Of a DNA stretch of 64,000 nt, positions 28,956 through 62,024 are shown in pieces. The notes under the pieces were generated by a model, which made no database searches, was not told where the DNA came from, and was given only the letters and a program-made list of their open reading frames with translations. Position 1 is the first letter of the stretch. Every line of letters starts with the position of its first letter. Origin of the DNA: Azolla caroliniana (Eukaryota > Plantae > Polypodiophyta); NCBI GenBank assembly GCA_043228905.1, contig JBHGNT010000155.1, forward strand, positions 1 through 64,000. Direction: 5' to 3'. A program made the translations under genes and the position numbers.

Positions 28956-29034
28956 TGAAGGGGGAGTTTGTTGGGAGACAGGTCCCTCCGGATTGGAAGG
29001 GAGAAGAACAGTGTTGATGAACAAACTCGGTTAC

Positions 29035-34269: not shown

Positions 34270-34287
34270 TGGTGAACCCGACGTGAA
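34270..34287 (+). promoter_or_regulatory. Primer binding site complementary to tRNA-Trp 3' end
   Basis: TGGTGAACCCGACGTGAA, 3 nt after the LTR's CA. It is the reverse complement of ...TTCACGTCGGGTTCACCA (plant cytosolic tRNA-Trp end, from memory). Confidence 0.8.
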
Positions 34288-34309
34288 AGAGGCGGCAGAA
34301 GAGCAGAAG

Positions 34310-36420: not shown

Positions 36421-36476
36421 AGAGGGCTGCCAAGGCGTGGGGCCGAGACAGTCCGGACACTCGGGAAAGACCCCAC
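36411..36476 (+). other. Predicted -1 ribosomal frameshift signal (GGAUUUU plus pseudoknot)
   Basis: G GAT TTT before the TAG, 6-nt spacer, stems GGGCTG/CAGTCC and GTGGGG/CCCCAC. The -1 frame is open into pol. Confidence 0.75.
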
Positions 36477-39336
36477 AGCTGTACGATAGAATCGAAACCG
36501 AAGAAACCTTGTATGATAGGTAGAAAAATTTGCTTCTCCAACAACGGAGGGTGTATGATAGTCGGCATCGTTGGCCGAGAAAAGGCAAGGGCGGAGGAGC
36601 GACTTCGAGCGTGCGGAGTTCTCGGCCCGGACGAGGAAATCAGCGGAGCCGTGGAGGCGGTCTCCTTCGACGACACCTTGGGGATGTTGAGGAAGGTAGC
36701 CGGAGAAGACCTTAACGAAGACCGGACGATACCGGTATGTTCCGAAGAGATGTACGAAGTCATCGCGAACTTCAGTCAGGGGCTCGGGTCGGATCGGACG
36801 GCCCGAGTTAGCACGAAGTACAAGACTGTGGACCGGAAGGTAAGGCCAGTCGCGGCACCCTTACCGGAGGGCAGCGAGTCCTGAATCAGAGGGGTTGCGT
36901 CGGACCCCAGTTTACGAGATCCGTTCTGCATAGGACACACCTTCACCGACGGGACGCTCCGGGAGCTCAAGATCGGTGGGGGCGGATTCCTACTGCCGGC
37001 GGAAGAAGACCGGTTTCGGAGAATGCTCGGAAGGCACGGGAAAGCCTTCGCATTCTCATCGGATGAGATCAGGTGCGTAGACCCGACAATCGTGGAGCCG
37101 ATGGTGATATTCACGGTACCGCATGTGCCGTGGAATCTCAAGCTGATTCCAGTACCGAGAGCTCACATCCCGAAGTTGATGGAGCTATTAAGGCAGAAAG
37201 TCAGTATGGGCATTCTCGAACCGTCGAGTGCCCCATACTCGAACCGATGGTTTACCGTACCGAAGAAAAACGGAACATTGCGCTTCATTCAAGACCTGCA
37301 GCCGGTCAACAGAGTGACCATTCGGAACGCAAGAATCGGACCGACCATAGACGAGTTCGCGGAGGCCTTTGCCGGAAGGTCGATTTATTCGGTCGGTGAT
37401 CTGTACTCAGGGTACGACCAGTTCCAGCTAGCCGTGGAGAGCAGAGACATTACGACGATGCGAACTCCCCTCGGCCTAGTGCGAATGTGTACCCTGCCAA
37501 AAGGAGGGACCAACTCGGTGGCCCACATGGTGAATGCGATGAACAAGGTACTGAGGGATTGCATCCCGGACATCACCATGTCGTTTCTAGACGACATCCC
37601 GATCAAAGGGTGCCCGGTGGAAGAGAAGGATGGGACACTCGGGCCGGACAGATGCCGGCGGTTCGTGGCGACACACATCGACGACTGTGAGAAGGTGCTA
37701 CAAAGGTTAGAGGATGCGAGGCTCACCTTCTCCGGGGAGAAATCGGCCTTCGGGCAATCAGAAATCCTGGTGGTCAGACACTTGTGTGGACCCTATGGCC
37801 GGAAGCCGTCTCCGGCAAAAGTAGAAGCCATCTTCGCAATGAAGACCGACTGTAGCTCGGTTACGGAGGTTCGGAGGTTCCTGGGGGCATGCGCATTCTA
37901 CCACATATGGATCCCGCATTACGCCCACGTTGCGGAACCACTATACGGGTTGCTGAAGAAGGGGCGAAAATTCGAGTGGCGAGACGAGCACACGGAGTCG
38001 GTCCAGAAGCTGAAGGAAGCTCTTGCGGCAGCACTGGCGCTCCGGAAGGCTGTCTACGAGAAGGGTACCCCAGTATACATAACGGTGGATACGAGCCCGA
38101 CCGGGATCGGATGGGTCGTCAACCAAGAAAACGAGGACGGCATTCGGTTCCCGATCCGATTCGGCGCGAAGGTCCTCAGTGAGCGACAACGAGGGTACGC
38201 CCAGGTTAAACGCGAACTCTGGGGTATCATTTCGGCAGTAAAGGTCGACAAAGACTACCTGATCGGGACAGAAGTGATTATCGAGACGGATTGCCTGCCA
38301 ATTCTCGGCATGGTTTCCGGATGCGCGACACCGGACCTGGCGATGCTCAGGTGGATAGCGTACATCAAGTCCCTGGACCCGGAAATACGACACATTTCCG
38401 GAAAGGACAACGCCATGGCCGACATGCTTTCGAGGGCGAGGTTTGATGACGAGGGCGGCATGGTTTCAGAGGACGAAGAAGTCGGCGTGGACTTCTTCGA
38501 GGCGGCGTACGTGACGACCGATGGGACGAGCACTCCGGCACTTAACGGCTTCGACGAGAGCAAGTACGATGGCGAGTGGCTAAAGATCGGTGGGTTTTTG
38601 AGGACAATGATGCCGGATGCGTCATGGACGAGGGACGAGGCCAACCGGATCCGGAAGAAAGCATACCGATTCTTTCTCCGGGACGGATACTTATGGAAGC
38701 ACCCGAAGAAGAAGAACGACGTCCCGCTTCGGGTGATGGCAATAAAGGAAGAACAGGAGGAGCTGCTGACGGCCTACCACGACAGCCCTTGGGCTGGACA
38801 CCGTGGAACGTGGGCCACGTTCGAGAAGATAAAGGGGAAGTACTGGTGGCCGGGACTGTACCGGGACGTGCATCGGTTCGTGACAACTTGCGAGAGCTGT
38901 CAGATGCACTCCATAGCCCAACATCAGGACGAGCTACACCCTACGTACCCTCCGACCATCCACTTCAAATGGATGGTAGATCTGGTGACGATGCCGATGG
39001 GAGTAGGACAGATGCGGTATCTGGTCCTGGCTCAGGAGGATCTGACGAACCAGGTGGAAGGCCGAGCCCTTCAGAACAAAACGACCGCGGCCGTATGTCG
39101 GTTCCTGATCGAGGACGTGATATGCCGGTACGGGTGCGTCGGGAAGATCGTGGCTGATCGCGGTGAGTTGGACGCCGAAGAGGCCGAGGAGCTGTTCGAC
39201 CGGCTAGAAGTCAAGCTCTCGCTTACCACTGCATACAATCCGGAGGCGAATGGGAAGGTGGAGCGTGGACACGGACCGATCGTCAAGGCGTTAGTTCGGG
39301 CATGCGGAGGGCAAGTCGGGAATTGGCCAGGGTTGC
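36421..39336 (+). pseudogene. G1 pol (RT-RNase H-INT), premature stop near 36884, 3' truncated
   Basis: ORFs 36513-36884 and 37023-39350 are in the same frame. Confidence 0.9.
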
Positions 39337-41297
39337 TGTTAATCGGCTAATTACTAACTACTACCGATACAGAAGAGTGAACGTCGCTACTCAACGTTCT
39401 AACAAGGAATTGTGTTTTACGAACAGAAATATACTATATTAATCGGTAATTACCGTGATCGTTACTTAGTTATAAATTAGGAAGATTGCACTTAACAAAA
39501 TAGACAATAGAAAGAACACAGAATCTGTACATGATATTCCTAACTTAAACTTATATTACTAAATAAACGACCTTTCTTACAATGCCTTCGGTTCCCTTTT
39601 ATAGGTATACCGAAGGTCTTTTCTCATCAAGAACTATTCCTACTTACTATCAAGAATTACAAAATTATCTAACTAACTTAGTTCTCTTCGTTCACTGCTG
39701 AGTCATCGATCCGAACAGTCGATCCGAACCGACTCCGTTTTCGACGCTTTCCCACTTGTTCGGTAAAACTGACTGTCCGGGTCCGGGTAACACTTGGCAC
39801 GTCCGTGGGCCAGGACCTTGTCCAGCGAACCCACGCCTATTCCTGTAGCTCTTCATCCGAATCGTTCAGAATATAAAAAATCGAAGGCTCTTCTGGCCTT
39901 GGATGTATTCCATCTATATCTTCCTCTTCCTCTTCATCTTCATCTGCGTCACAGTCGTCATTCGGAGCAGGTTTTGAATGTTGTGATTCGGTTGGCTGCT
40001 CTGGTTCACTTCTTCCGGGAGCTTGAAGACCAGGAGTCTTGCTGGTTCTTTCGGCTTCGATTTTATCCAACTGGACGGAAGTGCCTATATCATTTTTGTC
40101 AAATTCTTGCATAATACGTTGAATTTCTTCTCTGTAAAATGCCGCAATTTCGTCCATATCTTTCATGATATCCTCTTGGATATTGTCAATATCCTTTTGT
40201 GCCATTTTAAAAAAACCTGCACCTTGGACCTGACGGTTATTTTTGTCGGCACGCAATAACTGTAATTCCGCCGCTTGTGCCATCCATAACTTCCATCCTT
40301 GCGCAAGGGATTCGTCGATCATTTTCTTTGCTAGGTTTCGATGTTTCCCTATGATGTGCTGCACTTTGTCCTTAGTGATGCTTGCGTCGAATTGAGCGGC
40401 TTGCAACTCTTTCCGTAAATCTGTAATGGTGGCTCGGTTTTCACTTTCAGCCTGCATTAGTTTGGATTCGACTACATATATCTCCAGCCGCCTTTGTTCC
40501 GATATCTTCCGGATTTCGTTCAGTTGTTGTTCGAATGCCAATTTCTCTTTGCTCCATTCCTCCTGTTGTTCCGTAATTCTTCTGTTGACTTCTTCAAGAC
40601 TCCGCTCTTTTTCTGTCAATTGACTTTCCTGTGACACTATATACCTTTCGAATTCCTCAATTTGTTCGGTATATGTATGACTGGCCGTCTTAGCTTCTTC
40701 CATATTTTTCTGTAATTCTTTTATTAATTGATTTTTTTCTTCGAGAACTTTGTATTGGCCATTCTGAATGGTTTCTATTTGTTTTTCTAATTCTGTAGTT
40801 CGAAATACAGCATTGTTAGCTCTTGTTGTTTCTGCTTGACGTGCTTTCTCAGCGTCCTCCAATTTCTGCTGCCATTCTGACTCCGACGCCATAGGTCGTG
40901 CCTGTGTTTCCCATTTGTTTAGACTTTCTTTTAGTTCTTTATTTTCTGTCTGTATGTTACAAAACTGACGTTTCAGCACCTCCGCCGATGCTGATACACT
41001 TTTGTATCTTTCAGCCATATCACTGGCTGCTTTGCGTGACTTTTCATATTCTCTATGAATTTCAACCAGTGCTTCATGTAATGGTGGCATTTCAATAGCC
41101 TCCCCTCTATTCTGTGCATTTCTTTTCCGGCCGATTTTCTCCATCTTTGCTTTTTCTTGAGGTTCCAACACTCCTCGTAAGGACTTCTGTATCATTATTC
41201 GGTCATGATGTTCTTGAGCCAGCCGTTCTGATACTTCTGTCAATCTTCTAGCCAACCATTCAACCAGTTCGTATGAAGTTCCGAACTGTAAAATGGC
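39337..41297 (-). mobile_element. 3' fragment of Gypsy 'element B': 3' LTR plus coiled-coil accessory ORF
   Basis: LTR 39337-39792 (TGTTA..TAACA). ORF 39837-41297 is homologous to the accessory ORF of element C. Confidence 0.8.
39837..41297 (-). CDS. Coiled-coil accessory protein (5' truncated, ~485 open codons)
   Basis: E/K/Q-rich heptad-like sequence, then MIDESLAQGWKLWMAQAAELQLLRAD and an acidic tail. Confidence 0.75.
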   Translation of the reverse strand, partial: AILQFGTSYELVEWLARRLTEVSERLAQEHHDRIMIQKSLRGVLEPQEKAKMEKIGRKRNAQNRGEAIEMPPLHEALVEIHREYEKSRKAASDMAERYKSVSASAEVLKRQFCNIQTENKELKESLNKWETQARPMASESEWQQKLEDAEKARQAETTRANNAVFRTTELEKQIETIQNGQYKVLEEKNQLIKELQKNMEEAKTASHTYTEQIEEFERYIVSQESQLTEKERSLEEVNRRITEQQEEWSKEKLAFEQQLNEIRKISEQRRLEIYVVESKLMQAESENRATITDLRKELQAAQFDASITKDKVQHIIGKHRNLAKKMIDESLAQGWKLWMAQAAELQLLRADKNNRQVQGAGFFKMAQKDIDNIQEDIMKDMDEIAAFYREEIQRIMQEFDKNDIGTSVQLDKIEAERTSKTPGLQAPGRSEPEQPTESQHSKPAPNDDCDADEDEEEEEDIDGIHPRPEEPSIFYILNDSDEELQE

Positions 41298-42585
41298 AGC
41301 CTCGCATCCTCTAGCCTTTGCAGCACCTTCTCGCAGTCGTCGATGTGCGTCACCACGAATCGCCGGCATCCGTCCGGCCCGATCGTCTCGTCCTTCTCTT
41401 CTACCGGGCATCCCTTGATCGGGATGTCGTCTAGAAACGGCATGGTGATGTCCGGGATGCAGTCCCTCAGCACCTTGTTCATTGCATTCACCATGTGGGC
41501 CACCGAGTTGGTCCCTCCTTGCGGCAGCGTACACATCCGCACTAGGCCGAGGGGAGTTCGCATCGTCGTAATGTCTCTGCTCTCCACGGCTAGCTGGAAC
41601 TGGTCGTACCCTGAGTATAGATCACCGACCGAGTAAATCGACCTTCCGACGAAGGCCTCCGCGAACTCGTCTATGGTCGGTCCGATCCCTGCGTTCCGAA
41701 TGGTCACTCTATTGACCGGCTGCAGGTCCTGAATGAAGCGCAACGATCCGTTTTTCTTTGGTACGGTAAACCATCGGTTTGAATACGGGGCGCTCGACGG
41801 CTCGAGAATGCCCATATCAACTTTCTGCTTCAACAGCTCCATCAACTTCGGGATGTGAGCTCTCGGAACCGGAATTGGCTTGAGATTCCACGGTACATGC
41901 GGTACCGTGAATATCACCATCGGCTCTACGATCGTCGGGTTTACGCACCCGATTTCCTCCGGTGAGAATGCGAAGGCTTTCCCGTGCCTTCCGAGCATTC
42001 TCCGAAACCGGTCTTCCTCCGCCGGCAGTAGGAACCCGCCCCCACCGATCTTCAGCTCGCGGAGCGTCTCGTTGGTGAAGGTGTGTCCTATGCAGGCCGG
42101 ATCTCGTAAGCTGGGGTCCGATGCAACCCCTTTGATTCGGGATTCGCTGCCCTCCGGTAAGGGCGCCGCAATTGGCCTCACCTTCCGGTCCACAGTCTTG
42201 TACTTGGTGCTAACTCGGGCCGTCCGTTCCGACTCGAGCCCTCGACCGAAGTCCGCGATGACTTCGTACATTTCTTCGGAACATACCGGTATCGTCCGGT
42301 CTTCGTTAAGGTCTCCTTCGACTACCTTCCCCAGCATTCCCAAGGTGTCGTCGAAGGAGACTGCCTCCACGGCTCCGTTGATTTCTTCGTCAGGGCCGAG
42401 AACTCCGCACGCTCGAAGTCTCCCCTCCGTCTTTGTTTTCTCTCGGCCGGCGATGCCGACCATCGTACATGCTCCGCTGTCGGAGAAGCAAAATTTCCTA
42501 CCTATTGTACACGGTTTTATCGTACAGATGTGGGGTTTTCCCGGAGCATCCGGACTGTCGCGGCCCCACGCCTTGGCAGTCCTCT
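41298..42585 (-). pseudogene. G2 pol N-terminus/RT, truncated at the junction
   Basis: RFIQDLQPVN, DLYSGYDQ, LPQGGTNS, PFLDDI. Lies in the -1 frame relative to gag-PR. Confidence 0.9.
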
Positions 42586-44721
42586 CTAAAAATCCTCTCG
42601 GTTTTCGGAACCGAGGGAGTCGCGGTTACGTTCGTGGTTCGGCCGTACCGTCAGAAACTGGACCGAATGGCGCCCGTCTTGGTTTTTGACCCTCGCGTAG
42701 GCCGAACCATTGTCCAGCACCTTGGTCTCCATTCGCGCCGCCGTGATGTACGGCTCTCCCAGTATGACCGGATGCGAAGACGTCTCCTGCACGAAGAAGT
42801 GCTGGTCAATCTCGACGTCGCCGATCTTGACTCGCACATTCGGACAGGCCCCGTGCAGTTCCTCGGTGGCGCGCGTTGCTGCCCTTATTTTCCACCTGTG
42901 CTTGGTGTTGATCGGCCATTTGCCCTTCTTATAGAAGTCCATGGACATCAAATTGATCTCCGATCCGTGGTCCACCAAAGCTATCACCGGTTCCTGGACA
43001 TCGCCGATCTTCACCGGGGTTTCCGTGGTCGCTCGGGCCCAGTGTGGTCTCGAATAGTGGCTTTCCGCCCACTCGTCTCCCAGCGCCATGTCGTCTAGGT
43101 GCATCGTCCGCACTTCCACCGGTCTTTCCGGTTCTGTCTCCGTTGACAGCCTCTTCCGTTTCACCAAGTCCACGATGGAGTCGTGGAACTCCTTCTTGGC
43201 GATTCCCAGCACCTCTCGTAACGACAGCTCCACCTTGCTGTCGAGGATCCGTTCCTCCAGGACCTTTTGTAAGTCCGTGGTCCTTTCTATCTCCGTCCCC
43301 AGACGGTACCCGCCCTTCTGGGGTTTATCTTGCGTACCGGCCCCGCCGGCTTCGTCCCGTCGTGGCCCGGACCGAGTCTCGTATCGTTGTGAGGGCCCGG
43401 TCGTCCCGGTCGTCCCGGGTTTCCCCACCCGCTTCTCTTCTACCAGAGCCTCGTAGTTCTGGCAAGCGGCTTCCACGAAGCCCGTCTTTTCCTCGACCGG
43501 GTCGCTCCACCCGGTCATCTCCCGTACCCGTTTCTCCGCACGGTCCGATTCCTCCCTTTTAAGCCTTGCACCGGCAAGGCCTTCCAGCATCGTCGGCCAG
43601 AATCCGGCTTTGCTTTCCCTTCGGGCCTCACCGCCCCCGACTCGAATGCCGGCCGACGCCGAGTAGTGGACGGTTTCCGCGTGTCGGGCCGCCGCCTCTT
43701 CCATCAACCTTTTCATACCACCTCGCCCGTCGTTTCGGCTCAGGGCCCTCCGGGTGTCGCTGGCATGCACCCGTCCTTCCCACAGGTACACCACCCTGTT
43801 CCTCAGCGCCTCCGCGAAGTCGCCGCAGTCCTTCCGAATGTGGCCGACTTCATCGCACCACATGCACCTGTTTCCTGCCGCCGGCCGTCGGTCACGAGCC
43901 GGTTCGCCACCTTCCCTTCGGGCTTGCGCGATTTGGAGGTCCTTTATCGCCCTCGTCAATTCCTCCAGCGCCGCTCCTCCGGTTGAGCCTCTGACTACGC
44001 GGGTCGAAGCCGAACCGGTTTCCAACCACTCTCGGGTCTCTTCCTTTCGCACCTGTGGCGCTGGTTCGAGCTTCCTTGCTGCGACCGAGCCCGACCCGGT
44101 TGCCCCGTTATCCGCCCATTCTCGCCGTTTGTTGAAACGGCCACAGACTTTCTTGACAGCCGCCCAGTCGGTAGTGAGCCCGTCTTCGGTTTCCAGCAAG
44201 AGGCCCACTTGCTCCCGATCCCGCTCGTCGACCGACTTGACAAACAGCAAGACCCGACTCGTGTCCAGGATGGTTCGGTCGAGCGCCGAAAGGCGCGCAA
44301 AGTTTTCCTCGAACTCCCGGAGGAGTGCCGACGCGTTTCTTCCCTTCCCCGGGGACTCCACCCATTCCATGAACCTTCGCTTCGAAAGCCGGAGCGCGTC
44401 GTCCAGCCCGTATTTCTCTAGGAGCCGACCTTCGAACTCCTCCCAGGTACGGCTCTCCGCCCGCACCTCGAGCACCTCCGCATGGATGCTCGGCATCGCC
44501 ACTCGGGGAAATCCGGCAAGACGCCTTTCTTCCGGAATGTCCCGCATCAGCATCTCTGCACCGTAGGACGCCAAATACTTCGTGGCATCCTTCCCATCGA
44601 ACCGGCCGATCGTGCCGACGACCGCCTCAATGGCTCTGTCGAGGGCACCGGTGCCCTCGCGCGCGTTTACAATCCGATCCACGGCCGAAGCCATGGCCTC
44701 TGCAAGATCCGACCCCCTCAT
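42586..44721 (-). CDS. gag-pro: G2 gag-protease polyprotein
   Basis: Uninterrupted ORF: RFDGKDATKYL, CMWCDEVGHIRKDC, ALVDHGSEINLM...VILGEPY. First ATG at 44721. Confidence 0.88.
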   Translation of the reverse strand: MRGSDLAEAMASAVDRIVNAREGTGALDRAIEAVVGTIGRFDGKDATKYLASYGAEMLMRDIPEERRLAGFPRVAMPSIHAEVLEVRAESRTWEEFEGRLLEKYGLDDALRLSKRRFMEWVESPGKGRNASALLREFEENFARLSALDRTILDTSRVLLFVKSVDERDREQVGLLLETEDGLTTDWAAVKKVCGRFNKRREWADNGATGSGSVAARKLEPAPQVRKEETREWLETGSASTRVVRGSTGGAALEELTRAIKDLQIAQARREGGEPARDRRPAAGNRCMWCDEVGHIRKDCGDFAEALRNRVVYLWEGRVHASDTRRALSRNDGRGGMKRLMEEAAARHAETVHYSASAGIRVGGGEARRESKAGFWPTMLEGLAGARLKREESDRAEKRVREMTGWSDPVEEKTGFVEAACQNYEALVEEKRVGKPGTTGTTGPSQRYETRSGPRRDEAGGAGTQDKPQKGGYRLGTEIERTTDLQKVLEERILDSKVELSLREVLGIAKKEFHDSIVDLVKRKRLSTETEPERPVEVRTMHLDDMALGDEWAESHYSRPHWARATTETPVKIGDVQEPVIALVDHGSEINLMSMDFYKKGKWPINTKHRWKIRAATRATEELHGACPNVRVKIGDVEIDQHFFVQETSSHPVILGEPYITAARMETKVLDNGSAYARVKNQDGRHSVQFLTVRPNHERNRDSLGSENREDF

Positions 44722-45557
44722 CTTCTGCTCTTCTGCCGCCTCCTTCACGTCGGGTTCACCAAAGATGTCGAGATATTACGCAAGTGCGTGTGGAAACGAG
44801 GCGGGACCGCGGGGGTCTCGAACCAAAGAGCAAGCGAGGGAGGAGAAAGAGAGAGAACCGGCTACGCAGGACCGGGGATACACAGGGACACGGCCCTTCA
44901 GCACGGAGAACGCGAACAGACACCGACACAGACAGATGCGAATGACTAAATATGTATATTAACAAAATGGCTAACACGACTACAACCCTCGATGGGGCAC
45001 AGGTTGGCTACAACCGAACAGGCCGGCGAACAGATGCCGATGCTTGTTCGCTTCGACGCACAAAGGGGTAGCAGGTCGGAGGTGCTGCCGGAAGCACTCG
45101 AGCGTTCCTCGAAACAGCGCGAGCCTCCTCGGAACCCTGCAAAGAAAAGCTATGGAGCTCAAGAAGGAAGGAAACAGAGAGAGAAGCGTCCAGAAACGGT
45201 CCGACAGCACTTCGTCCTCTCTGCGCGAGATGCCTGCAACAGCTCTTTCCTGCTCCTTATATAGGCCGACGAGCAGGCCGTCCTGTCAGCTTTATTCCCT
45301 GTCCCTTTTGGACAGGGATCCGCTCCGTTCTTCACGCATCCGCGTAGTTACGCCGCCGACTCGTACAGTTCCTTAGCTCGCGCGCGCGACCGAAAAGACT
45401 GTTCGCGCGGTCTTTGTCTCCACTTGTGTTAGGGCCCGTTCCTGCCGATTATCCTCCTAATTCGCTTCTATGTACAACTTGGAGCGTGCGCGCGTGAAGA
45501 ACCGGTTCCCACGCCTTGGTGCGCCGATTCCGCCTATGGACGGTTTTCTTCACGACA

Positions 45558-47543
45558 CCGTTGCATGCCACCGTACATCGGACACCATTCTAGTGGACCG
45601 ACACCGAGGATAGGGTGTATAGGGCCCTCAAGGTGATATTGTCGCAAGCACCAGTAGTGCAGCCTCCGAATTGGAGTAAAGAATTTCACGTGTTCGTGGA
45701 CGCCTCCGACATCGCAATCGGAAGCGTACTGATGCAGCTTACGGAACCAAAGTGGTACCGGCCAGTGTACTATGCCAGCCGAAAGCTATCCCAAGCAGAA
45801 CGGAACTACTCTACCACGGAACGGGAAGCTCTAGGGATGATCTATAGTGTGACAAAGTTTCGGCATTATTTATTGGGAAGGAAGTTTTCCTTCCATGTAG
45901 ATCATTCGGCACTCCTTTACCTGGTGTCCAAAGCATCACTCACTAGCAAATTGGCCCGGTGGACCTTACTGTTACAGGAATTCGAGTTTGAAATATTCCA
46001 CCGACCCGGTATACAGCATGCCGTGGTGGATTACTTAAGCCGATTAGAGTCCGGAGAGACGGGTGACGGAGTAGCGGATGAGTTTCCGGATGCGGAGCTG
46101 TTTCGAGTCACTACGGAGACGACAACAGATGAGACGGTGGCCCAGGAAGACAAGTGGCTCACAAATATGCACCAGTTTTTGAGCACAGGACTGCCTACGA
46201 AAGAGATGAACCGGGACGAACGAAAACGCCTAGCGGTGCAAAGCCGACATTTCTGCTTACTGCAAGACACACTTTACCACAAGGGCGCGGACGGCATATG
46301 GAGACGGGTTGTGTGCAGCGATGAAAAGGACCTCATACTGAGGGATGCCCACTGCGGAGTTGCCGGAGGTCACTATGCCGGAGATGCGACAACCAGGAAA
46401 ATATGGCAAAGTGGCCTATGGTGGCCAACGACATTAAGAGATGCGGTATGGTACGCAAAAGAATGTGACCTATGCCAGCGAATGGGCCAGCCAACGGAGC
46501 AGGCTCGTATGCCACACCAGCCGGTACTACCACTGGAGCCATTCTAAAAGTGGGGGCTGGACTTTGTTGGACTGTTCAAACCACCGGCAATGAGAACGGG
46601 TAATCAGTACGTCATCGTCGCGACGGATTACTGCACGAAATGGGTGGAGGCCATAGCTTTAAGGGACAACACCGCTGCGTCAACGGCGAAATTTCTATAC
46701 GAGTACATCTGGTGCCGTTACAGATGCCCAATTGAATTAATAAGCGACCAAGGGGGGCACTTTCTCAGCCAAGTAGTGGAAAGCCTGACGACATTCTATG
46801 CCGTTGTCCACAAACGGAGCACACCTTACTATCCGCAAGCGAACGGTTTAGCGGAATCAACGAACAAGACGCTCCAGAATATCCTCCGGAAGATCGTCAA
46901 TGAAAACCGAACGGATTGGGATACCAAGCTACGTAGCGCGCTTTGGGCATACCGGACGGCATACAAGACGAGCATCCGAACAACACCGTTCCGGTTAGCG
47001 TTCGGACTAGAGGCGGTAATGCCGGTGGAATTCCAAGTACCCAGCTTACGGATCCAGCTACGGGAACAGCTGAACGAGAAGGAGTCGGAGGCAATACGGT
47101 TAACAACGCTGTGTGAACTCGAGGAACAACGACTGGCAAGCATCCTGCACTTAGAATTGGAACAACGGCAACGGAAAGCATTTGTCGACCGGCACAGGAA
47201 AGGAAACGAAAAAATGTTCGCAATTGGCAAACTGGTGTTAGTATTTCAGACCTGGATGGGCAAGATGCCGGGTAAACTACGGTTTAGATGGACCGGACCG
47301 TATTGGCTAACACGGGAGTATAATGGGTCCTACCAGTTAGGGACACTTGCCGGCGAAGTGCTAGGCAAATGGGTCAACGGATTCCGATTGAAGCCATATA
47401 GAGGACCGATGCCTAAGAACCCATTTGAGCAAAGGACCGACACCAGTGAGGGAAACGGCAACCACCAAGACGGCAGAGACGGCGAGCCGGTAACTGGGGA
47501 GAATGAGGCCGGTAAGGGTTCGAGAGGACCAACGGACAAGTAA
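45558..47543 (+). pseudogene. Element C pol (RT connection, RNase H, integrase)
   Basis: ORFs 45615-46547 and 46590-47543, same frame, split by a stop. Confidence 0.92.
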
Positions 47544-49961
47544 CGTCACACTAAATTTAAAATAAATAAATAAAATAAAATAAAAAACAATAATGCAAAA
47601 GCGAGGAGTGAATGGATGAAAGAGCGAGGAGCGAAAAGGTACGTAGTGGGCATTTAAAGCGCTACCATAGGACATAATGTTATTTTAGTACACGACATGC
47701 ACACACTCAAAAAAGGCGCCAGAATGCAAAGACAAAAACCACTGCGCGTAGAGACCCTTTACTTTCGCGAACCCAGGAGCACAGAAGCACCAAGATGCTG
47801 CAAGATCATCAGACGAGAACCTACGCACAGAGAACCCTCGCCTTCTGAACTCTCTCTCTCTCAATCTCACTCTCATCACCATCCAACCTCGCCACCGCAA
47901 TCCGACCTCGACACAGACATGGACCCGCAAACGCTGTCGGAAGCCGCCAAGACATGGCTAAAGCAACACGGGCTCGAGGGCTTCTTGATGATGATGGAAG
48001 TACCGCCACACAAAGAAGCCGACAAAGTGATCAAAGAAATCGACACAGAGGTCATAACGGCAGAGGCGATTCGAGCGTTAACAGGACTTCCGGAGGGAGG
48101 CATACTCACGATTGACAACCCAACTCCGGAGCAACTCATCAGGTATTTTGGTGAGTACTCTCTAGCCAGCAAGGGCTACCGGACACAGGGCGGCGGAGAT
48201 ATGTTGTTCCACGAGATTGCTCGTGTGCTCCACGAATACGGCCACGTGTACCCTAGACCCCCTGTCATGCCGCAGAACCGGGCAAGGATGATCATCGCCA
48301 CCTATGAAGGGATCAAGGTGGATTGGCCGGTATTGATCGCAGACGGGTTGTGTGCGGCGATCGAGATCGTCAGAGGCAAAGACGGCAAAGAAGGCCGAGA
48401 CGGACGGAGGATATGGCACGCCGTAACGCAGTGGCTCACCTTGCTTGTGCCACCCGTCCAGCCCGTCCAGCCCAAGAAGCGAGGAAGGGTGGCGGACGGC
48501 ACCCCAAAGACGGCTTCCAAACGACAACAGTTGTTGGCCTCTAAGGCCACTAAGGGAAAGGCGGAGGATGTAGAATAGGCAGGAAAGGGGAGCGGCAGCT
48601 GGAAGCGGCCAACGGATGCGCAGGAGGAACCACCGGCACGGCCCGTAAAGGTTACACTCCGCCGACCGATGAATAGAGAAGCGGACCCCTTGGCGGCAAA
48701 ACTCAATGCCGGGACTCAGGAAGAGGAAATAGAGGAGGAGCCTACGGAGCACCTCCAACGACGATCGTCGGCAAGGACCGTTGAGGCAGCCGGGAAACGT
48801 TCGGACCCTCAGACGGAGGGAACACCGGCTCCCCATACTGAGACTCCCACACCAAGGAAGGAACCGGAACCGGTGCACATGGCACCGGAATCAGAAGCCT
48901 CGGCACCACCGGCAACACCGGCAAGTCCCATCCCGCCAGAGCCGGAAAGGTCAATGCAGCCTCCCTCGGCCAGCCAAGAAGAAGCGCAAGGGGAACCAGG
49001 ACAGCAGGGTGGTCCACGGGCAGAAATGGAATTGCAACTCGGCGCAACCAGGCGGGACCACCCATCTACAAGTGAGCCCATCTGTCAAACCTCCGTGCAA
49101 GCACAACAAGGCACCGGTAGCCTGTGGCTCCGGTGGATAGGCGAACAGATAGCCGAAGCAGTGGGGTATATTGAGGCGGAAGAAAGAGCGCAAAGTGAAC
49201 GGTTGCTCGTCACAACCGAACAACTAGAGACGGCCCGGTCCAGAATCCGGTGCCTTGAAAAAGACTTGGATCAGGTCACGACAGAGATGGCCAAAATGGC
49301 CTTAACGGCAACACAGATCCAATCACCGGTGACTCCGGTAAGTGTACAGAATAAAGAAACGGATTGACCTGTACATACCAATAAGACCCCGACAACGGAA
49401 ACCGTTCCGGCGAGAGATGCGGCGCAAGCCCAAGAGCTTGCGGAATTGAAAGATGAACTTGCTGCACAAGAGGCACTAAGGAGCCGTGAACGAGAATTGA
49501 AGACAGCGGCCGAAGCCGAATTAAAGAAGACTGCTGAGAACCTCCGCCGAGCAGAGGAGAGCCTCCGGAAAGGCCATCAAGCGTACGACCGGCTAAAGGA
49601 GGAAAAAGACAAAGTGCTGCAGGAAAAGGACAAGCTGCGGAAGACGGCGGAAACGGAAATTGAACGGCTAAAGGAAGAGCTCCGCCAGCAGAAGGACCGC
49701 GAGGACCGGGCCCGTCGACAGATCAACGCACGGCTCAAGCAAAAGACAGATGATTTTGAGCACCTGCACCGGGACTACAAACGGCTGGAAACGGAGCATA
49801 AGGAACGGATGGCCAAGCTCCAGCAGGAAGTTGATCGGGCCGCGACGGCGATCGCCGACGAACGTGCGGAAAATACAAGACGCTTGGACGAGGCGGAGAA
49901 GGTCCGAATGGAGCTCCAGAGGCAGCAGCAGGAAGAAAAAGAGAGAGCGTCAACAGTATTG

Positions 49962-50622
49962 TGACGAGAACTCGGCGCTCCTTCGGCGCAACGCTCGGCC
50001 ACAACCGAGCTTGGAATGATACACAGAAAATGGGAAATAAAGCACGACACAAAGAAGAGGAAAATACACAGGAGGTTTACATGGAAAACCCCAAACTAGG
50101 GGAAAAACCACGACAGCCCACACAGGCTACAAACTATCACTACGTTGGAATGTACAAACAGTGAGTTCACAGAGGCAACGACCTGGTGCTCACGATCTTC
50201 GCCACAGGTGGCGGTTACAACAGAGGCAGCGACCTCTCTCTCTCTCTCTCTGTACTGTTACGTGCTCACTCTACTTCTTGCACCCCCAAAAAATTGACAA
50301 AAAAAAAAAAAACTAGTTTGCCCTAAGTCATATTTATACTAATATGACTTTTCGGCTATTTACAAATATAGCCTCGATGGACTATCAGAAAACATATTTA
50401 CGAATATGTCTCTTCATCCGGTTCTCCGTAACCAGGTACTCCTCATCCGGTCTTCACCGAGTCTGCATCATCCGGCTCTCCGTAGCTGGGTACTCCTCAT
50501 CCTGTTCATACAGGGTCTGTACCATCCGGCTCTCCATAGCCGGGTTCACCTCATACGGTTTCAGCACTGTTCATCGGCACTGTTCTTCTCCCTTCCCATC
50601 CGGAGGGACCTGTCTCCCAACA
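49962..50622 (-). mobile_element. Solo LTR, Copia-3 family
   Basis: Reverse complement of a Copia-3-type LTR. TSD TATTG (49957-49961 / 50623-50627). Confidence 0.93.
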
Positions 50623-51164
50623 TATTGCAGAAATTACAAAGCACATATCAAAGGCAATTGACGCATTACAAGGCGCATGCGGAAGACAATGTCAAAATCA
50701 TCAAGCAACTGAAGGAGGAACGGCAAGTGGCGGAAACCAAATCGCAATTGGGAACGGGCCTTATTCAGTCTATCCTCCGGGCATGGCTGAATCAGAAAAA
50801 ACACTTGATTGATGAAAGCTCCGTAAGATGGTGGACAAAGTGGGCACAAAACGCGGCGGAACTCCAATTGCTACGGGCAGATGTGGCAAACCGGCGGAAG
50901 GAAGGAGATGATTGTTATACGTTGACTTCCGAGGACTTCACCGCCATACGGGACGAGCTGGCCGACGACTTCCAAGTCTTGGCGGATGAACAGCTGGCGC
51001 AGGTCAGGCAGCTCGTAGCTCAGCTAGATGATGATAGGCTAGACGCTCAAATTCAGTTTGAAAGCTACGAGCGGTCCCGGGTTCGGGAAGAAAAAGCACG
51101 GGAAGCGGCAACGGTTAACCTTAGTGATGAGGAACCGTCGCCGGTTGAGGGCCAGCCCGGAACC

Positions 51165-51878
51165 TGTTGGGAGACAGGTCCCTCCGGATGGGAAGGGAGA
51201 AGAACAGTGCCGATGAACAAACTCGGCCGAGGCCGAAACCGGATGAGGAGTACCCGGCTACGGAGAGCCGGATGATACAGTGCCGATGAACAAACTCGGC
51301 CGAGGCTGATAGGCCGAGGCCGAAACCGGATGAGGAGTACTCGGCTACGGAGAGCCGGATGATACAGACCCGGTGTGAACCGGATGAGGAGTACCCGGCT
51401 ATGGAGAGTCGGATGGTGCAGACCCAGTGAGAACCGGAGGAAGAGACATATTCGTAAATATGTTTCTGAGAGCCTATCGAGGCTATATTTGTAAATAGCC
51501 GAAAAGTCATATTAGTATAAATATGACTTAGGGCAAACTTTTAGTAGTTGTTGTTATTTTCTGTTTTGCACGAGATTAGTATGCGTAACTGTACAGAGAG
51601 AGAGAGAGAGAGAAAGAGGTCGTTGCCTCTGTTGTAACCGCCCCCTGTGGCGAAGATTTGTGAGCACGAGGTCGGTGCCTCAGTGAACTCACTGTTGTAT
51701 ATCCCTACATAGTGACAGTTTGCAACCTGTGGGCTGCCATGGTTTTTCCCCTAGTTTGGGGTTTTCCACGTAAACCTCCTGTGTATTCTCTTCTTCTTCT
51801 TGTCGTGGTTTTTCTGTGTATCATTCTAAGCTCGGTTGTGGCCGAGCGTTGTGCATTAGGAGCGTTGAGTTCCCGTCA
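51165..51878 (+). mobile_element. Solo LTR, Copia-3 family
   Basis: TGTTGGGAGACAGG...CCCGTCA. TSD GAACC (51160-51164 / 51879-51883). Confidence 0.93.
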
Positions 51879-52152
51879 GAACCAATCAACCGGAGACCAC
51901 TACGACGAAGGGAGCAACGACGGAGACGTCGGTGTCAGAGTAACAAACGGAGGAGCGGCCGCAGCAGCCATCAACGGACCCGTCGCAGCAGACATCAACA
52001 GAGCAACAATAGCAGCAACAACAACAACAACAACCAATTCCAGATGAACCATTGGAGACTCTCGAACAAAGCATTCTAGATATTTTGGACGAAGAATGCA
52101 AGGGTCGGTTGTGGATTCGACGTACAAGGTACTGTCCCACGGGCGTGCCATG

Positions 52153-52587
52153 TGTTACCGGCCGGCAAAGGAGTCCAGAGTGGGAAACGGAGAGTTATTT
52201 AAGTAGTAGGAATGTGGTTGTAATTAAGCTATGAGTGTGGACGGACGGACCGGAATCGGTATGCCGTTCCGGATCCGGACCGATCCCGAACAGGTGCGGA
52301 TGGCACCGTTTTGTAATACAGACCGGAAACCTATTTAAAGGCCCAGATACAATGTAATGAATGGCGGTTCATTAATAAAAGCTTAGCGTTGTTATCTCTT
52401 TGTGTTAATTGCCGTTCTGTCTTAATTGTTATATCTTACGCGTGTGATTATGAAAGACGATCATGCTAAGTAACTTAATTAAGTCGGATTAAGCGTTGAG
52501 TCTAATCCGGTTGCCGTAACACCCTTTGGTGAAGTGTCTTCCGTAGACACTCTGTGTTAGGCCATTGTCCGGCCCTAAGAGTTAACA
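52153..52587 (+). repeat. 3' LTR of element C
   Basis: TGTTACCGG...GTTAACA with TATTTAAA and AATAAA. Termini resemble the element B LTR. Confidence 0.75.
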
Positions 52588-56105: not shown

Positions 56106-56701
56106 CCACTCTGTCTTGTCTCTCTGTAACTCTTTTGCTATAGAAACTATAACACTATTCTACACACTTTGTTCTATAGTAATTATGTGTTTGCCCTAAG
56201 TGTATTTATACTTATACACTATATTTCTAACAAACTCCCCTTCACTCCTATGGGTGGAGTCGATCAGCCATGTCCTCTATCGACAGACTTAGATTCTATC
56301 CATCGGTAGGTTCTTTTTCAACATGTCGGATCCATTGTCATCAATATGGATCTTCACAAGGGTGAACTCTCCTTCCTCCATTTTCTCCCACAACCAATGA
56401 TACCTTCTTTGTGTCATAACTAGACCCGAACCCATAACCTTTTGTTACACGGGTCGAGACTTTACCATTAGGTTATGAATTGTAATTTGAAGGATATTAT
56501 TTTCATTTAGGTTTTATTGGGAAATTGATGTATATTCCAGATTTCTCTGGAACATTCTAGAAACTTCAGGAGTATTCCTGAAGACACTATAAAAGGAGGC
56601 GCAAGGCATTAGTTCGAACCAAATCGGTTCAACGCCAGTCTTAAGCCTTCTAACTACTGTTGTATATCTTCCTTCATATAATACATATATCTTTCGCATC
56701 A

Positions 56702-56737
<36 letters not shown>

Positions 56738-56952
56738 ACTCACTCATTCCTTCTCTCAAAGTTCGACACCTCTCATAGTACTAATCCTTCTCTGTCTTAG
56801 TACTATTCCCCAACAATAGTACTAATCCTTCTTTTAGTACTAATTCCTTCTCAGCCTTAATAGAGTTCCTGACAGTTTGAACCGATTTTACTGTCTGGTC
56901 TTTTCTCTCCCTCCTTTCCTACTAGTCTCTTATTTCCCTTTTCCTTCATCCC

Positions 56953-58122
56953 ATGGCCACCGTTAGCGCTGAAGAGTATCAATCCGTTTTCTCGGAATTT
57001 CAATGCTTGAAAGAGAAGTTTCATGCTTTGGAACAAGAAAATCAACGCTTGTTGGGGGATCTTCAGCAAATTTCCTTAGAAAAGCAGCAAACGCAACAAC
57101 AGCATGGGGAACTTGCGTTACGCGTGCAACAACTCGAAGCAACCATCGTAGCAATGCAACAACAAGGGCACGGAGCACAAGGGATTCATAAAGAACCCAA
57201 GATTGGCCTTCCCACGAAGTTCGATGGAACGCGATCGCAGTTTAGAGGGTTTCTTAACCAGGTACGGTTAGTTATTCAAATGCATCCGTCCCGATATCCC
57301 ACCGATGCATCACGAGTGGGTTTAGTAGGCACGTTGTTAAATGGCTCAGCATTAGCATGGTTCGCTCCGCTACTAGAAAAGGAATCTCCAGTACTAAATA
57401 ATTTTGAAGAATTCATAAGTGAGTTTAAAGCATGTTTTGGAGATACTGACAGCATAAGGACTGCAATCAACAAAATCCGGCGATTACGCCAAGGTGACCG
57501 TCCAGCCTCCGCATATGCTGCAGATTTCCGCCTACTCGCCACCGATATCCCCTGGGATGATCAAGCATTGATGGAGCAGTTCCGCTATGGTCTACGCAAC
57601 GATGTCAAAGATTTACTCTTGACTTTCCCTGAAGAGCCAAAATCATTAACAGAAGCAATCAGTCGAGCGGTCAGATGTGACAACCGCCTCTTCGAGCGAC
57701 GTTCGGAACGACAATTTCAGATGCCGAGGGCAAGATCCGAGCCTACCTATGCCTCAGTGGTAGCAAAACCTTTTCAAAGGGAGTCACATAATGCGCCTCC
57801 AGTAAGTACTCCAACTCCAATGGAAATTGACACTACACGTCGTCGTGGGCCGCTATCGGAGGAGGAAAAGCAACGACGCCGAACAAACCGATTATGCCTT
57901 TATTGCGGTGGACCAGGGCATATCGCGATAAACTGTCCCCATAGACCAAGAAGGCAGGTAAACCAAGTCGTTGTTAGTTCTGACTATACTAAACCCGAGT
58001 CTATTTCAGTAGGAATCTCTGATAGTCCTCATAGTCATAATAGTCTTAATAGTACTAATAGTCCGAATCTCGCAAACAAATTTGATGTCCTTAGCCAATT
58101 AGAAGAAGAGTTAAACGACTAA
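56953..58122 (+). CDS. gag: Chromovirus gag (retrotransposon gag, CCHC knuckle)
   Basis: PTKFDGTR, LRQG..SAYAADF, FRYGL, PMEID, CLYCGGPGHIAINCP. Confidence 0.95.
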   Translation: MATVSAEEYQSVFSEFQCLKEKFHALEQENQRLLGDLQQISLEKQQTQQQHGELALRVQQLEATIVAMQQQGHGAQGIHKEPKIGLPTKFDGTRSQFRGFLNQVRLVIQMHPSRYPTDASRVGLVGTLLNGSALAWFAPLLEKESPVLNNFEEFISEFKACFGDTDSIRTAINKIRRLRQGDRPASAYAADFRLLATDIPWDDQALMEQFRYGLRNDVKDLLLTFPEEPKSLTEAISRAVRCDNRLFERRSERQFQMPRARSEPTYASVVAKPFQRESHNAPPVSTPTPMEIDTTRRRGPLSEEEKQRRRTNRLCLYCGGPGHIAINCPHRPRRQVNQVVVSSDYTKPESISVGISDSPHSHNSLNSTNSPNLANKFDVLSQLEEELND

Positions 58123-61100
58123 GTCCAGCCAAAATAGGAGCCGTTTGGTTGGACAGCCCTAGATCTGTGCAGCCCATTAGTGGTTCCATTCCCTCTAAGC
58201 AAGTTAGTGATGTGTTCGTAGCCCAAGTAGCAGTTAGTACTAAAAGTACCCCTCCAGTACATACCTTAGCCCTTCTAGATTCCGGAGCTAATTCTTGCTT
58301 CATGGATAGGAATTTTGCCCGAGCTCATCAGATATCTCTCAGAAAGCTCCCATGTCCAGCCTCAGTAGTAGTCATTGATGGTCGTCCCATTGCTTCTGGT
58401 AATATCATAGAAGAGTCGGAACCCGTTAATATTGTCCTAGATAACTTAACATGTGTAGTATCATTTAATATTATTAGTATTCCAGAACACCCCATAGTTT
58501 TAGGATTACCATGGTTCGAGTTACATAACCCAGACATAGATTGGAGGACAAGGGAAATCCGGTTGCGACAAACCCAAGGATCTACCCAGAAGGTTGCAAC
58601 CATTTCGCTACGTCAGTTGCGTGAGGAAGGGCGCAAGGAGGAAATGTTTCTCTTCGCAATATCAGTACAACCCTCCAGCACCACCAAAGAGGAGTCCACC
58701 GTTCAACTTCCCGAGAAGTATCGTCAGTATGCTGATGTGTTCGATAAAGTACAAGCCAACACACTTCCTCATCATCGGCCGTACGATTGCGCCATCGACT
58801 TACAACCGGGAAAAGAGCCGCCATGGGGGCCGATCTACAATTTGTCACCAACCGAGCTAGAAGTCCTTCGAGCCTATATAGAGGAGAATTTGGAGAACGG
58901 TTTCATTCGGCATTCGAAATCTCCAGCCGGCGCACCCATTTTCTTCGTCAAGAAAAAAGATGGCTCGCTTCGACTCGTTGTAGATTACCGTGGCTTGAAT
59001 AAGGTCACAGTAAGAAATAGGTATGCTCTTCCCCTTATCTCAAGTCTTTTAGAACGGATCAACGGTGCCAGGTTCTTCACGAAGATCGACTTACGAGGAG
59101 CCTATAACCTCGTACGGATCCGACCAGGAGATGAATGGAAGACCGCGTTTCGCACCAGATATGGGCACTTCGAGTATACGGTCATGCCGTTCGGACTCAC
59201 TAATGCGCCGGCAGTCTTCCAGCACATGGCGAATGATATATTTCGAGATCTCTTGGATGATTTTTTGATCATCTATTTGGATGATCTACTGGTTTATTCA
59301 AAGACCCAAGAAGAACATGATTCTCATGTACTATTAGTACTAAAACGACTTCGAGAACATGGTGTGTATGCAAAGTTAGAGAAATGTAGTTTCGGGTGCA
59401 ACCAAGTGGAATTTCTCGGCTATGTCATCTCCTCAGAAGGCATATCTATGGACCCAGCCAAGGTCAAAACGGTGATAGAATGGCACACTCCGCATTCGGT
59501 GCGGGATGTGCAATGCTTCCTAGGCTTTGCAAATTTTTACCGGAAGTTCATACAAAATTACTCAAAAATTGTGCTGCCTCTCACACAGCTCACCAGGAAG
59601 GGACAATCATTCATTTGGTCTAAAGAGACGGACATGGCTTTCGAGAGTCTTAAGAAGGCGTTTACATCAGCTCCAATTTTAGGTCATGTGGATCCGGAAA
59701 AACCATTCATTATCGAAGTTGACGCATCGGATTTCGCATTGGGGAGCATTCTGTCACAACAGGGTAACGACGAGAAGCTACATCCTGTGGCTTTCCACTC
59801 CCGTAAGTTTGACGCCGCCGAAATCAACTACGAAATTCATGATAAAGAGCTATTAGCAATAGTTGATTCTTTTATGCAATGGAGGCATTTCCTGGAGGGA
59901 TCTCCTCATCAGGTCACTGTATTCAGTGACCACAAGAACCTTGCCTACTTTCAAGATGCTCGTGTACTGAATCGACGTCAAGCTCGGTGGGCCCACTTCC
60001 TCACACGCTTCGACTTCAAAATTACATATCGTCCGGGGAAGCACCAAGGGAAGGCAGATGCATTATCACGGCGTTCGTATCTAACACCACGTCCCGGTGA
60101 GCCAGCTTTCGATAACCAGAAGCAAGTAATCTTGGGTCCAGCACGACTGCAAGCAGCACAGGTCTTTGACATGCCCGTGGATTCCGACATTACCAATACT
60201 ATACGTGAGGACTTGAAGACTGACGCTTTCGCCCAAGCTATACTAGCACAAATTGACCCCTCTCGAGCGTCATGTTCACAATCACAATCACCAGGTACGG
60301 ATTATCGGCAATTCAAATACTGTGATGGATTACTCTTCTTTAAAGAACTTTTGTATGTTCCTAATGGTTCTTGCCGCCTTCGAGTAGTACAAAATTGCCA
60401 TGACACATATACAGCAGGACATTTTGGTAGTACTAAAACATTAGATTTAGTACAACGATCATTCTGGTGGCCCCGTATGCGACAATTTGTCGAAGATTTT
60501 GTTCGGACTTGCGATACATGCTGCAGAGCGAAAATGCCAAGACATCATCCATATGGTTTATTAGAACCATTACCAATTCCAAGCAAGCCATGGCAATCCA
60601 TTGCTCTTGACTTCATTACAGATCTTCCAGTCTCTAAGGGATTCAGTGCGATTCTCACAGTGGTGGATCGATATACGAAGATGGCTCATTTCTTACCATG
60701 TACTAAAGAAATATCTAGTGAAGACACCGCCGAAATTGTCATGCGGGAAGTATGTCGGCATCATGGACTCCCTGATAATATCATCAGCGATCGTGGACCC
60801 CAGTTTGTGTCAAAATTCTGGAAGCACCTTTTTAAAATGCTGAAGGTCACTTGTAACCTCTCCTCCGGCTACCACCCACAAACCGACGGTCAAGCCGAAC
60901 GAACAAATCAAACACTGGAGCAGTATCTGTGGTGCTTTCTCAACTATCATCAGAATGACTGGGCAGATATTCTTCAGTTCGCCGAATTTGCCTATAATAA
61001 CGCTATCCACGCATCGACTAAAGTCACGCCATTCTACGCTTATACGGGATATCATCCCCGATGGTGTGTCCTTGAAACCCCAGAAGTGTCCACAAATCCT

Positions 61101-61706
61101 TGCGCGGAGGATCGTTTGGAGCGGTTACGCAAGATACAAGCGGATTTATCTACTCAACTCCAGCAAGCTCAACAATCACACAAGGACTACGCAGATCGTC
61201 ATCGACTTCCATCCAGTTTTAACATTGGAGATCGGGTGTGGCTGCTACGACGACACATCAAGACTACTCGCCCATGTGAGAAGTTGGATTATCGGCGATT
61301 AGGTCCTTTCCGTATTATCGGGAAGATTAATGATGTCGCTTTTCGTCTCGAGCTACCTCCGCAACTTCGGATACATCCGGTGTTTCATAGTTCTCTCCTC
61401 GAACCCTATCACGAGAGCACTATCCCAGGACGTACTATACAACCACCACCTCCTATCGAGCTCGAAGATGGACCTGAATATGAGGTCGCTGCCATCCTCG
61501 ATTCCAAGATTGTTCGCAACAAGCTCTACTATCTAGTCGATTGGCTAGGATATAGTCCCAGCGAGCGTACTTGGGAACCGATCGAGAATGTGACCAATGC
61601 TCGTGCTCTTCTAGAAGACTTCCATCGACGATATCCCGAGAAACCGGGTCCTCAATCCAAAACGACTCGTGGAACTCGTCGTTTTAAAGGGGGGATAGTG
61701 TCATAA
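58110..61706 (+). CDS. pol: Chromovirus pol (PR-RT-RH-INT-chromodomain), -1 frame to gag
   Basis: LLDSGA, YLDDLL, DASDFALG, ISDRGPQF, GPF, and chromodomain YEVAAILDS..YLVDWLGY..TWEP. The frame is open from 58110. Confidence 0.95.
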   Translation, partial: VKRLSPAKIGAVWLDSPRSVQPISGSIPSKQVSDVFVAQVAVSTKSTPPVHTLALLDSGANSCFMDRNFARAHQISLRKLPCPASVVVIDGRPIASGNIIEESEPVNIVLDNLTCVVSFNIISIPEHPIVLGLPWFELHNPDIDWRTREIRLRQTQGSTQKVATISLRQLREEGRKEEMFLFAISVQPSSTTKEESTVQLPEKYRQYADVFDKVQANTLPHHRPYDCAIDLQPGKEPPWGPIYNLSPTELEVLRAYIEENLENGFIRHSKSPAGAPIFFVKKKDGSLRLVVDYRGLNKVTVRNRYALPLISSLLERINGARFFTKIDLRGAYNLVRIRPGDEWKTAFRTRYGHFEYTVMPFGLTNAPAVFQHMANDIFRDLLDDFLIIYLDDLLVYSKTQEEHDSHVLLVLKRLREHGVYAKLEKCSFGCNQVEFLGYVISSEGISMDPAKVKTVIEWHTPHSVRDVQCFLGFANFYRKFIQNYSKIVLPLTQLTRKGQSFIWSKETDMAFESLKKAFTSAPILGHVDPEKPFIIEVDASDFALGSILSQQGNDEKLHPVAFHSRKFDAAEINYEIHDKELLAIVDSFMQWRHFLEGSPHQVTVFSDHKNLAYFQDARVLNRRQARWAHFLTRFDFKITYRPGKHQGKADALSRRSYLTPRPGEPAFDNQKQVILGPARLQAAQVFDMPVDSDITNTIREDLKTDAFAQAILAQIDPSRASCSQSQSPGTDYRQFKYCDGLLFFKELLYVPNGSCRLRVVQNCHDTYTAGHFGSTKTLDLVQRSFWWPRMRQFVEDFVRTCDTCCRAKMPRHHPYGLLEPLPIPSKPWQSIALDFITDLPVSKGFSAILTVVDRYTKMAHFLPCTKEISSEDTAEIVMREVCRHHGLPDNIISDRGPQFVSKFWKHLFKMLKVTCNLSSGYHPQTDGQAERTNQTLEQYLWCFLNYHQNDWADILQFAEFAYNNAIHASTKVTPFYAYTGYHPRWCVLETPEVSTNPCAEDRLERLRKIQADLSTQLQQAQQSHKDYADRHRLPSSFNIGDRVWLLRRHIKTTRPCEKLDYRRLGPFRIIGKINDVAFRLELPPQLRIHPVFHSSLLEPYHESTIPGRTIQPPPPIELEDGPEYEVAAILDSKIVRNKLYYLVDWLGYSPSERTWEPIENVTNARALLEDFHRRYPEKPGPQSKTTRGTRRFKGGIVS

Positions 61707-61984
61707 CTAGACCCGAACCCATAACCTTTTGTTACACGGGTCGAGACTTTACCATTAGGTTATGAATTGTAATTTGAAGGATATTATTTTCATTTAGGTT
61801 TTATTGGGAAATTGATGTATATTCCAGATTTCTCTGGAACATTCTAGAAACTTCAGGAGTATTCCTGAAGACACTATAAAAGGAGGCGCAAGGCATTAGT
61901 TCGAACCAAATCGGTTCAACGCCAGTCTTAAGCCTTCTAACTACTGTTGTATATCTTCCTTCATATAATACATATATCTTTCGC

Positions 61985-62024
<40 letters not shown>

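Follow-up and report, generated by a model that had tools for sequence, protein, structure and literature searches.

A selected accessory gene with a predicted VANC21-like N-terminal domain in a non-chromovirus Ty3/gypsy lineage from Azolla caroliniana

Organisation of the locus

We analysed a 64,000-nucleotide stretch of Azolla caroliniana (contig JBHGNT010000155.1, positions 1 to 64,000; hereafter the window), in which region 39337..52587 is a nest of long terminal repeat (LTR) elements. Two of these, elements C and B, carry the accessory open reading frame (ORF) studied here. It is a real and selected gene, for which an anti-silencing role is a testable hypothesis, and the elements that carry it seem to be without the usual signal for second-strand initiation. 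Its position, the intact frames of its relatives, its co-inheritance with integrase, purifying selection and the lack of a transmembrane segment are direct observations.

The pol remnant of element C (45548..47543, +) covers the end of reverse transcriptase (RT), RNase H (RH) and integrase (Pfam RT_RNaseH, Integrase_H2C2 and rve), contains two stops and is 87% identical to the gag-pol of the related locus L001. It is followed by an A-rich spacer (47544..47918, +) and by the ORF, whose 931 codons start at the ATG at 47919 and are spread, in sense and 3' of integrase, over three pieces (681, 179 and 71 codons). An earlier reading of the window from its letters (the sequence-only reading) had described a sense ORF of ~930 codons after integrase, and both this ORF and the motifs it quoted were found in place. 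The N-terminal globular domain (N-domain, residues 1-183) occupies 47919..48467 (+), with a basic cluster, PKKRGR, after it; a Pro/Glu linker, a WLRW helix and a coiled coil follow at 48468..49961 (+), with stops at 48576 and 49365. The frame is interrupted by a 661-bp copia-family solo LTR (49962..50622, -; target site duplication TATTG), continues as piece 2 (50628..51164, +), which carries LIDESSVRWWTKWAQNAAELQLLRAD at 50805-50882, is interrupted again by a second, 714-bp solo LTR from that copia family (51165..51878, +; duplication GAACC) and ends in piece 3 (51884..52096, +), which holds the acidic tail EQSILDILDEE and stops at 51941 and 52010. Both target duplications are 5 bp long, and the two solo LTRs stand ~540 bp apart within this one ORF. 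A hairpin with a CCA-ending tRNA-like sequence (52110..52152, +) lies at the expected site of the polypurine tract (PPT), before the 3' LTR (52153..52587, +; TGTTA...TAACA), which has an inferred left edge and whose right end matches the LTR end preceding the site for primer binding (PBS) of L001.

For element B, the window holds the 3' half of the ORF only (486 aa and a stop; 39837..41297, -), the B copy of the hairpin and antisense-PBS motif (39793..39835, -) and a 3' LTR (39337..39792, -; TGTTA...TAACA) that sits within the integrase of an unrelated element; the N-domain and pol of B are absent from the window. At 41298 the B ORF is joined to an unrelated Ty3/gypsy fragment with a DUF4100 gag (41298..45560, -), which stands in place of the 5' portions of the two elements. 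In both window copies the accessory ORF is dead. The B ORF was also considered as an antisense gene of the adjoining DUF4100 element; this is ruled out, as B-type relatives carry the ORF in sense behind their own integrase. The DUF4100-gag family has a second copy at 33624-39336 (+; 86% identity between the two), and its gag and pol are in different frames. The minus copy bridges B and C at their truncated ends, which suggests that its insertion was followed by a deletion or inversion.

At the protein level, the C and B blocks align with 28% identity over 133 aa (E 2e-16), and the score of 182 exceeds every value from 1000 shuffles (maximum 91) and from 1000 heptad-block shuffles (maximum 98). 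At the DNA level, blastn of B against C gave a single 49-nt match, which is the 3' hairpin before the LTR. The GC content is 41% in B vs 56% in C. The sequence-only reading had described B as AT-richer and the two families as nucleotide-divergent with a conserved protein, and both descriptions hold. The same architecture that it gave to B was recovered from full-length B-type relatives and not from the 3' half in the window: P0014 agrees with B at 426/481 residues and aligns with the C N-domain at 37% identity (E 9e-38).

Relatives and co-inheritance with integrase

Two protein searches gave 10 and 8 related proteins, and a further search for longer ones returned only the 10 already found. With an E cut-off of 0.001, a profile search recovered 382 proteins, the majority of them short fragments. 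Scanning metagenomes yielded 84 relatives, of which 80 were retained; these are all ENA contigs with closely numbered identifiers and are not independent evidence of host range. High-coverage contigs among the relatives probably collapse many copies. No relatives of the ORF were found in the viral contigs searched. Full-length proteins measure 972-1075 aa (C-type) and 883-898 aa (B-type), and the two types align across the N-domain, WLRW helix, coiled coil, AAELQLLRAD (AAELQ) block and acidic tail. A complete stop-free frame of 912-1117 codons is present in ten loci. In relatives, the place of the A-rich spacer of element C is taken by a weakly constrained extension that prolongs the ORF upstream in frame.

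Concerning gene position, the C-terminal half of integrase and the N-domain are on the same strand in 31/31 rows that contain both, at a distance of 271-729 nt in 30 of them, and the ORF ends ~15 nt or less from the conserved 3' motif. Integrase is found upstream in 19 of the 28 loci with >900 nt of upstream sequence; among the other nine, L069 has RT/RH directly upstream and L002 contains a reversed element. Seven loci (L004, L010, L016, L023, L025, L028 and L064) retain the ORF and spacer, with no pol similarity seen upstream; this could reflect insertions, chimerism of the contigs or non-autonomous elements that keep the ORF. The L002 layout, in which a related family's hairpin, LTR, degenerate PBS and gag (1555-2430, -) stand head-to-head with a C-type accessory ORF, may be a nested insertion, a chimeric contig or an inverted arrangement.

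The integrase and N-domain trees both split B-type from C-type loci, with support of 99/100 for 10 rows and of 100 in a quick tree of 11 rows, the extra row (L044) having a broken integrase. The Spearman correlation between integrase and N-domain is 0.56 over 465 non-independent pairs.

Selection on the accessory gene

The dN/dS ratios were calculated by NG86 for 20 hand-picked long-frame loci and the two window copies; pairs with dS 0.1-1 were kept, and these pairs share ancestry. The median is 0.091 for the N-domain (59/59 pairs below 0.3, kept from 210), 0.086 for the AAELQ block (35/35, kept from 120) and 0.16 for the coil (37/38), of which ~300 residues are conserved. The medians of the linker, tail and upstream extension are 0.32, 0.36 and 0.50, respectively. 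For the N-domain of window C, dN/dS is 0.084 vs L002 and 0.084-0.088 across L001 and L002; for window B vs L044 it is 0.070. All five window comparisons fall below 1 (binomial p 1e-5 to 4e-21). To judge from these sequences, the purifying selection is past selection, on active lineages. The sequence-only reading had proposed a selected accessory protein, to be doubted if dN/dS were ~1 or if the block proved to be a known domain or a host gene; the ratios across copies are far below 1 and the two trees have the B/C split in common.

A Pfam scan of the window pieces and full-length relatives gave no match above the curated cut-off, with sub-threshold coiled-coil matches only. One JGI source names a fragment 'myosin heavy subunit' and both window copies are dead, as would suit either an SMC/myosin-like coiled-coil gene taken up from the host or a relic that evolves neutrally. 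However, these dN/dS values contradict the neutral version, and against the explanation as a whole stand the B/C split common to integrase and N-domain and the lack of an SMC or myosin match in Pfam, the resemblance being that of a generic coiled coil; we find this explanation barely credible.

Predicted fold and candidate function

The predicted fold of the N-domain matches VANC21 (PDB 9lnk/9lnj, DUF1985) over 174 residues at 9% identity. Atlas TM scores are 0.55-0.70 with ATHILA ORF1 / Transposase_32 clusters and 0.58/0.42, over 149 residues, with the plant mobile domain (PMD, PF10536). The N-domain is thus modelled as a VANC21/Transposase_32/PMD-type fold, in which ten basic positions are conserved. 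The Pfam profiles of ATHILA ORF1, Transposase_32 and PMD did not match the window pieces or the full-length relatives, and these families are not among the 25 listed of the 44 Pfam families for 129 members. Foldseek against viral structures and PDB gave no match at E 0.001 or better; a PDB sequence search returned TAF8 at E 0.014 with a 35-sequence profile, a match that was gone with a 129-sequence profile. The term 'possibly undescribed' in the sequence-only reading therefore stands for the sequence family and not for the predicted fold, which is that of known plant transposon accessory domains.

We propose that the ORF, with its predicted VANC21-like N-domain, gives a non-chromovirus Ty3/gypsy lineage a third gene, one kept by selection, and that its product works in the nucleus against silencing, in a sequence-specific manner and on behalf of its own family; we give this proposal as a whole an even chance. 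The N-domain would bind motifs in the non-coding DNA of the element, the basic cluster after it may import the protein to the nucleus, and the coiled coil with the AAELQLLRAD helices may oligomerise the protein or bring in a chromatin factor of the host. Copies of the family would then be released in trans from methylation or Polycomb silencing, as for VANC. What weighs against it is that, in the LTR windows, target-motif arrays are not evident (2/6 windows above the shuffle 95th percentile). Anti-silencing, scaffold and movement roles had all been suggested earlier; the first is favoured over the other two because the predicted N-domain fold groups with plant transposon accessory domains.

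A chromatin-binding or scaffold accessory of the same fold, which would tether integration complexes or host factors for target-site choice or nuclear entry, fits the same predicted fold and selection data. It also fits the ~300 conserved residues of coiled coil and the lack of a chromodomain that would target integration. However, the sole experimentally characterised transposon protein with the predicted fold is an anti-silencing factor, and only co-inheritance ties the protein to integrase or particles, so that we think this role possible though rather unlikely. An env-like envelope or a cell-to-cell movement protein would agree with the long helical regions and with the location between pol and the 3' LTR, which is that of env-like ORFs (excerpt of PMC7264820). 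Against it, no transmembrane segment is found: the highest 19-residue hydropathy is 0.37-1.31 in 18/18 proteins vs 2.56 for the PUNUT transporter of the window. The best structural match is, moreover, a nuclear DNA-binding protein. We regard an envelope or movement function as very improbable, which bears out the earlier statement that this is not a classic env; the VANC-like predicted fold likewise argues against an 'env-like' label for the family.

Lineage placement and known systems

L001 and L005 contain single gag-pol ORFs (1937-1944 aa) with the Pfam order gag-PR-RT-RH-INT and without a Chromo match in Pfam; by sequence, the lineage is a Ty3/gypsy non-chromovirus. Pfam found no additional archaeal-type RNase H (aRH) of the kind that defines Tat elements with aRH (Ogre, Retand, TatI-III), which fits Athila. 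The PBS is TGGCGACCACG in L001, L005 and L024 and TGGCACGCCCGG in L038, and differs from the Athila PBS TGGCGCCGTTGCC (tRNA-Asn/Asp), which is defined for Brassicaceae only in the available text of 10.64898/2026.03.20.713144. The earlier label 'Athila-like' is apt for a non-chromovirus without aRH; with a PBS not of the Brassicaceae Athila type and no PPT seen, it is not established.

VANC, an experimentally characterised anti-silencing factor (available part of PMC5735166), is the closest comparison. VANC21 of the VANDAL (Mutator-like) DNA transposons is also a transposon-encoded accessory protein, with the fold predicted here for the N-domain, a coiled-coil region and a conserved domain beside variable low-complexity regions. 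The present protein differs in being encoded by an LTR retrotransposon, in having the domain, at that 9% identity, at the N-terminus of 900-1100 aa, and in the lack of clear target-motif arrays in the LTR windows; its anti-silencing role is a prediction. VANC is called dicot-specific in the accessible text of PMC13547354, whereas the host here is probably a non-seed plant.

The Athila 3' ORFs (ATHILA ORF1 PF03078, Transposase_32 PF20167) are also in sense after pol, and their clusters gave the TM scores reported above. A sunflower Athila ORF of 487 aa has PF20167 and a nuclear signal (PMC11728184, in part); the ORF described here is about twice as long, with no Pfam match and no transmembrane helix, and its elements have short LTRs (370-470 bp), a different PBS and no PPT seen. 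The PMD of Ogre eORFs and of host MAIN/MAIL1 is similar in predicted structure, and PMD-C resembles VANC DUF1985 (excerpt of 10.1101/2024.09.27.615353); here there is no sequence match to it, and the long C-terminal coiled coil makes a different architecture. The antisense ORFs of Retand/Tat (Transposase_28 PF04195, Smc-like coils) are likewise conserved extra ORFs situated between pol and the 3' LTR; a coiled coil is frequent in them and DNA binding has been proposed (PMC11963269, in part), but the present ORF is in sense, without a PF04195 match or an additional RNase H.

Extra ORFs are known in 3372 Ty3/gypsy elements of 314 groups (available text of PMC6317226). We found no description of this accessory family, or of a retrotransposon ORF tied to the VANC21 structure, in a literature search that left most subscription papers and supplements outside; the eORF tables of PMC6317226 could hold relatives. 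The available text of PMC10508981 mentions neither the ORF nor its 3' junction. The function of extra 3' ORFs in plant Athila/Tat-type elements is an open question, the ATHILA ORF being without an assigned function in the accessible part of ATHILAfinder (2026), and the predicted VANC fold addresses it. The predicted match of the whole domain to a DNA-bound VANC21 structure makes the hypothesis concrete, in that the protein should bind DNA and demethylation should be specific to its family.

The 3' junction

Between the ORF stop and TGTT, RNAalifold predicts a hairpin consisting of a 6-bp stem, a UUCG bulge, 2 bp, a U bulge, 4 bp and a 3-nt loop. Pairing is retained in 95% of 180 cells vs 31-51% in slid controls, and both sides have changed at 4/12 pairs, in a set of 15 copies from few lineages; pair-count measures do not exceed shuffles. 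Among the 17 loci that extend 400 nt or more past the AAELQ block, 16 have the hairpin, as do L002 and the two window copies; it is missing from L067, where the contig may end too early. A factor that binds RNA for export/packaging or priming and recognises this hairpin just 3' of its own stop codon, by a Rev/RRE- or CTE-like logic, would be in keeping with the hairpin being the sole DNA common to B and C, with its near-constant presence and with its covariation. However, the protein matched by fold binds DNA, the hairpin's position is accounted for by the neighbouring LTR without the ORF, and the tail of the hairpin resembles a primer site; we hold such a factor to be quite improbable.

The hairpin is followed by GG(G/A)CGTGCCA, 2 nt and TGTT. 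Over the 20 nt ahead of TGTT, the maximum purine run, a measure that depends on the inferred LTR start, is 3 in 15/15 copies vs 7-10 in three other elements of the window. The minus strand reads LTR end, 2 nt and TGGCACGCCCG, in the manner of an antisense PBS; this region matches the sense PBS of L038 itself over 11 nt. A hairpin-less motif pattern matched the 3' halves of two phage tRNAs, Arg(TCT) and Glu, which shows resemblance only, the pattern having been designed to find such matches. Rfam and ARAGORN made no call at the hairpin, and no tRNA was called at the 13 viral matches to the hairpin pattern. On one reading, the role of the PPT would be taken by a tRNA that anneals to the minus-strand DNA, or by the RNA acting as a mimic of a tRNA primer. 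That the element primes itself on its own PBS was considered as a general rule and is ruled out: the motif lacks complementarity to the C-type PBSs.

If instead the LTR begins at the hairpin, a weak PPT would overlap the ORF end. This would suit the 15 nt before the hairpin (60-80% purine in 14/15 copies), the G-runs upstream in mixed X1 loose ends and L002, in which the hairpin abuts unrelated DNA; against it stands the TGTT...AACA terminal repeat in both window LTRs, L002, L003, L024, L038 and L061. In our judgement, the LTR fairly likely starts at TGTT. The fuller proposal of a lineage without a PPT, in which second-strand synthesis is tRNA-primed (host tRNA on the antisense PBS, or a CCA mimic) and which also has its own VANC-fold anti-silencing protein, we regard as unlikely; if true, it would place VANC-like counter-silencing in retrotransposons well ahead of the dicot VANDALs. 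A junction without a PPT would, if true, be an exception to the standard replication rule of LTR elements; no report of a tRNA-like PPT replacement was found, with most subscription papers outside the search.

Other contents of the window

LTRs of the copia family found inside the C ORF are present at 49962-50622, 51165-51878, 24081-24882, 28969-29800, 1729-2271 and 11409-12483, and carry an internal 54-bp tandem repeat and a (GA)n tract. Another copia element (5877-11408, -), with 311-bp LTRs that are 99% identical, is nested in a further copia element. The chromovirus at 56411-62162 is young (98.7% identity between its LTRs); its gag and pol frames are open, and its chromodomain retains the aromatic cage (Tcn1-like). 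Two PUNUT (purine permease) host genes (16216-17406 and 20371-21732; 68% identical) lie inside the retrotransposon nest. A G-rich minus-strand stretch with several frames of 180-240 codons is found at 29800-32180, between two copia pieces.
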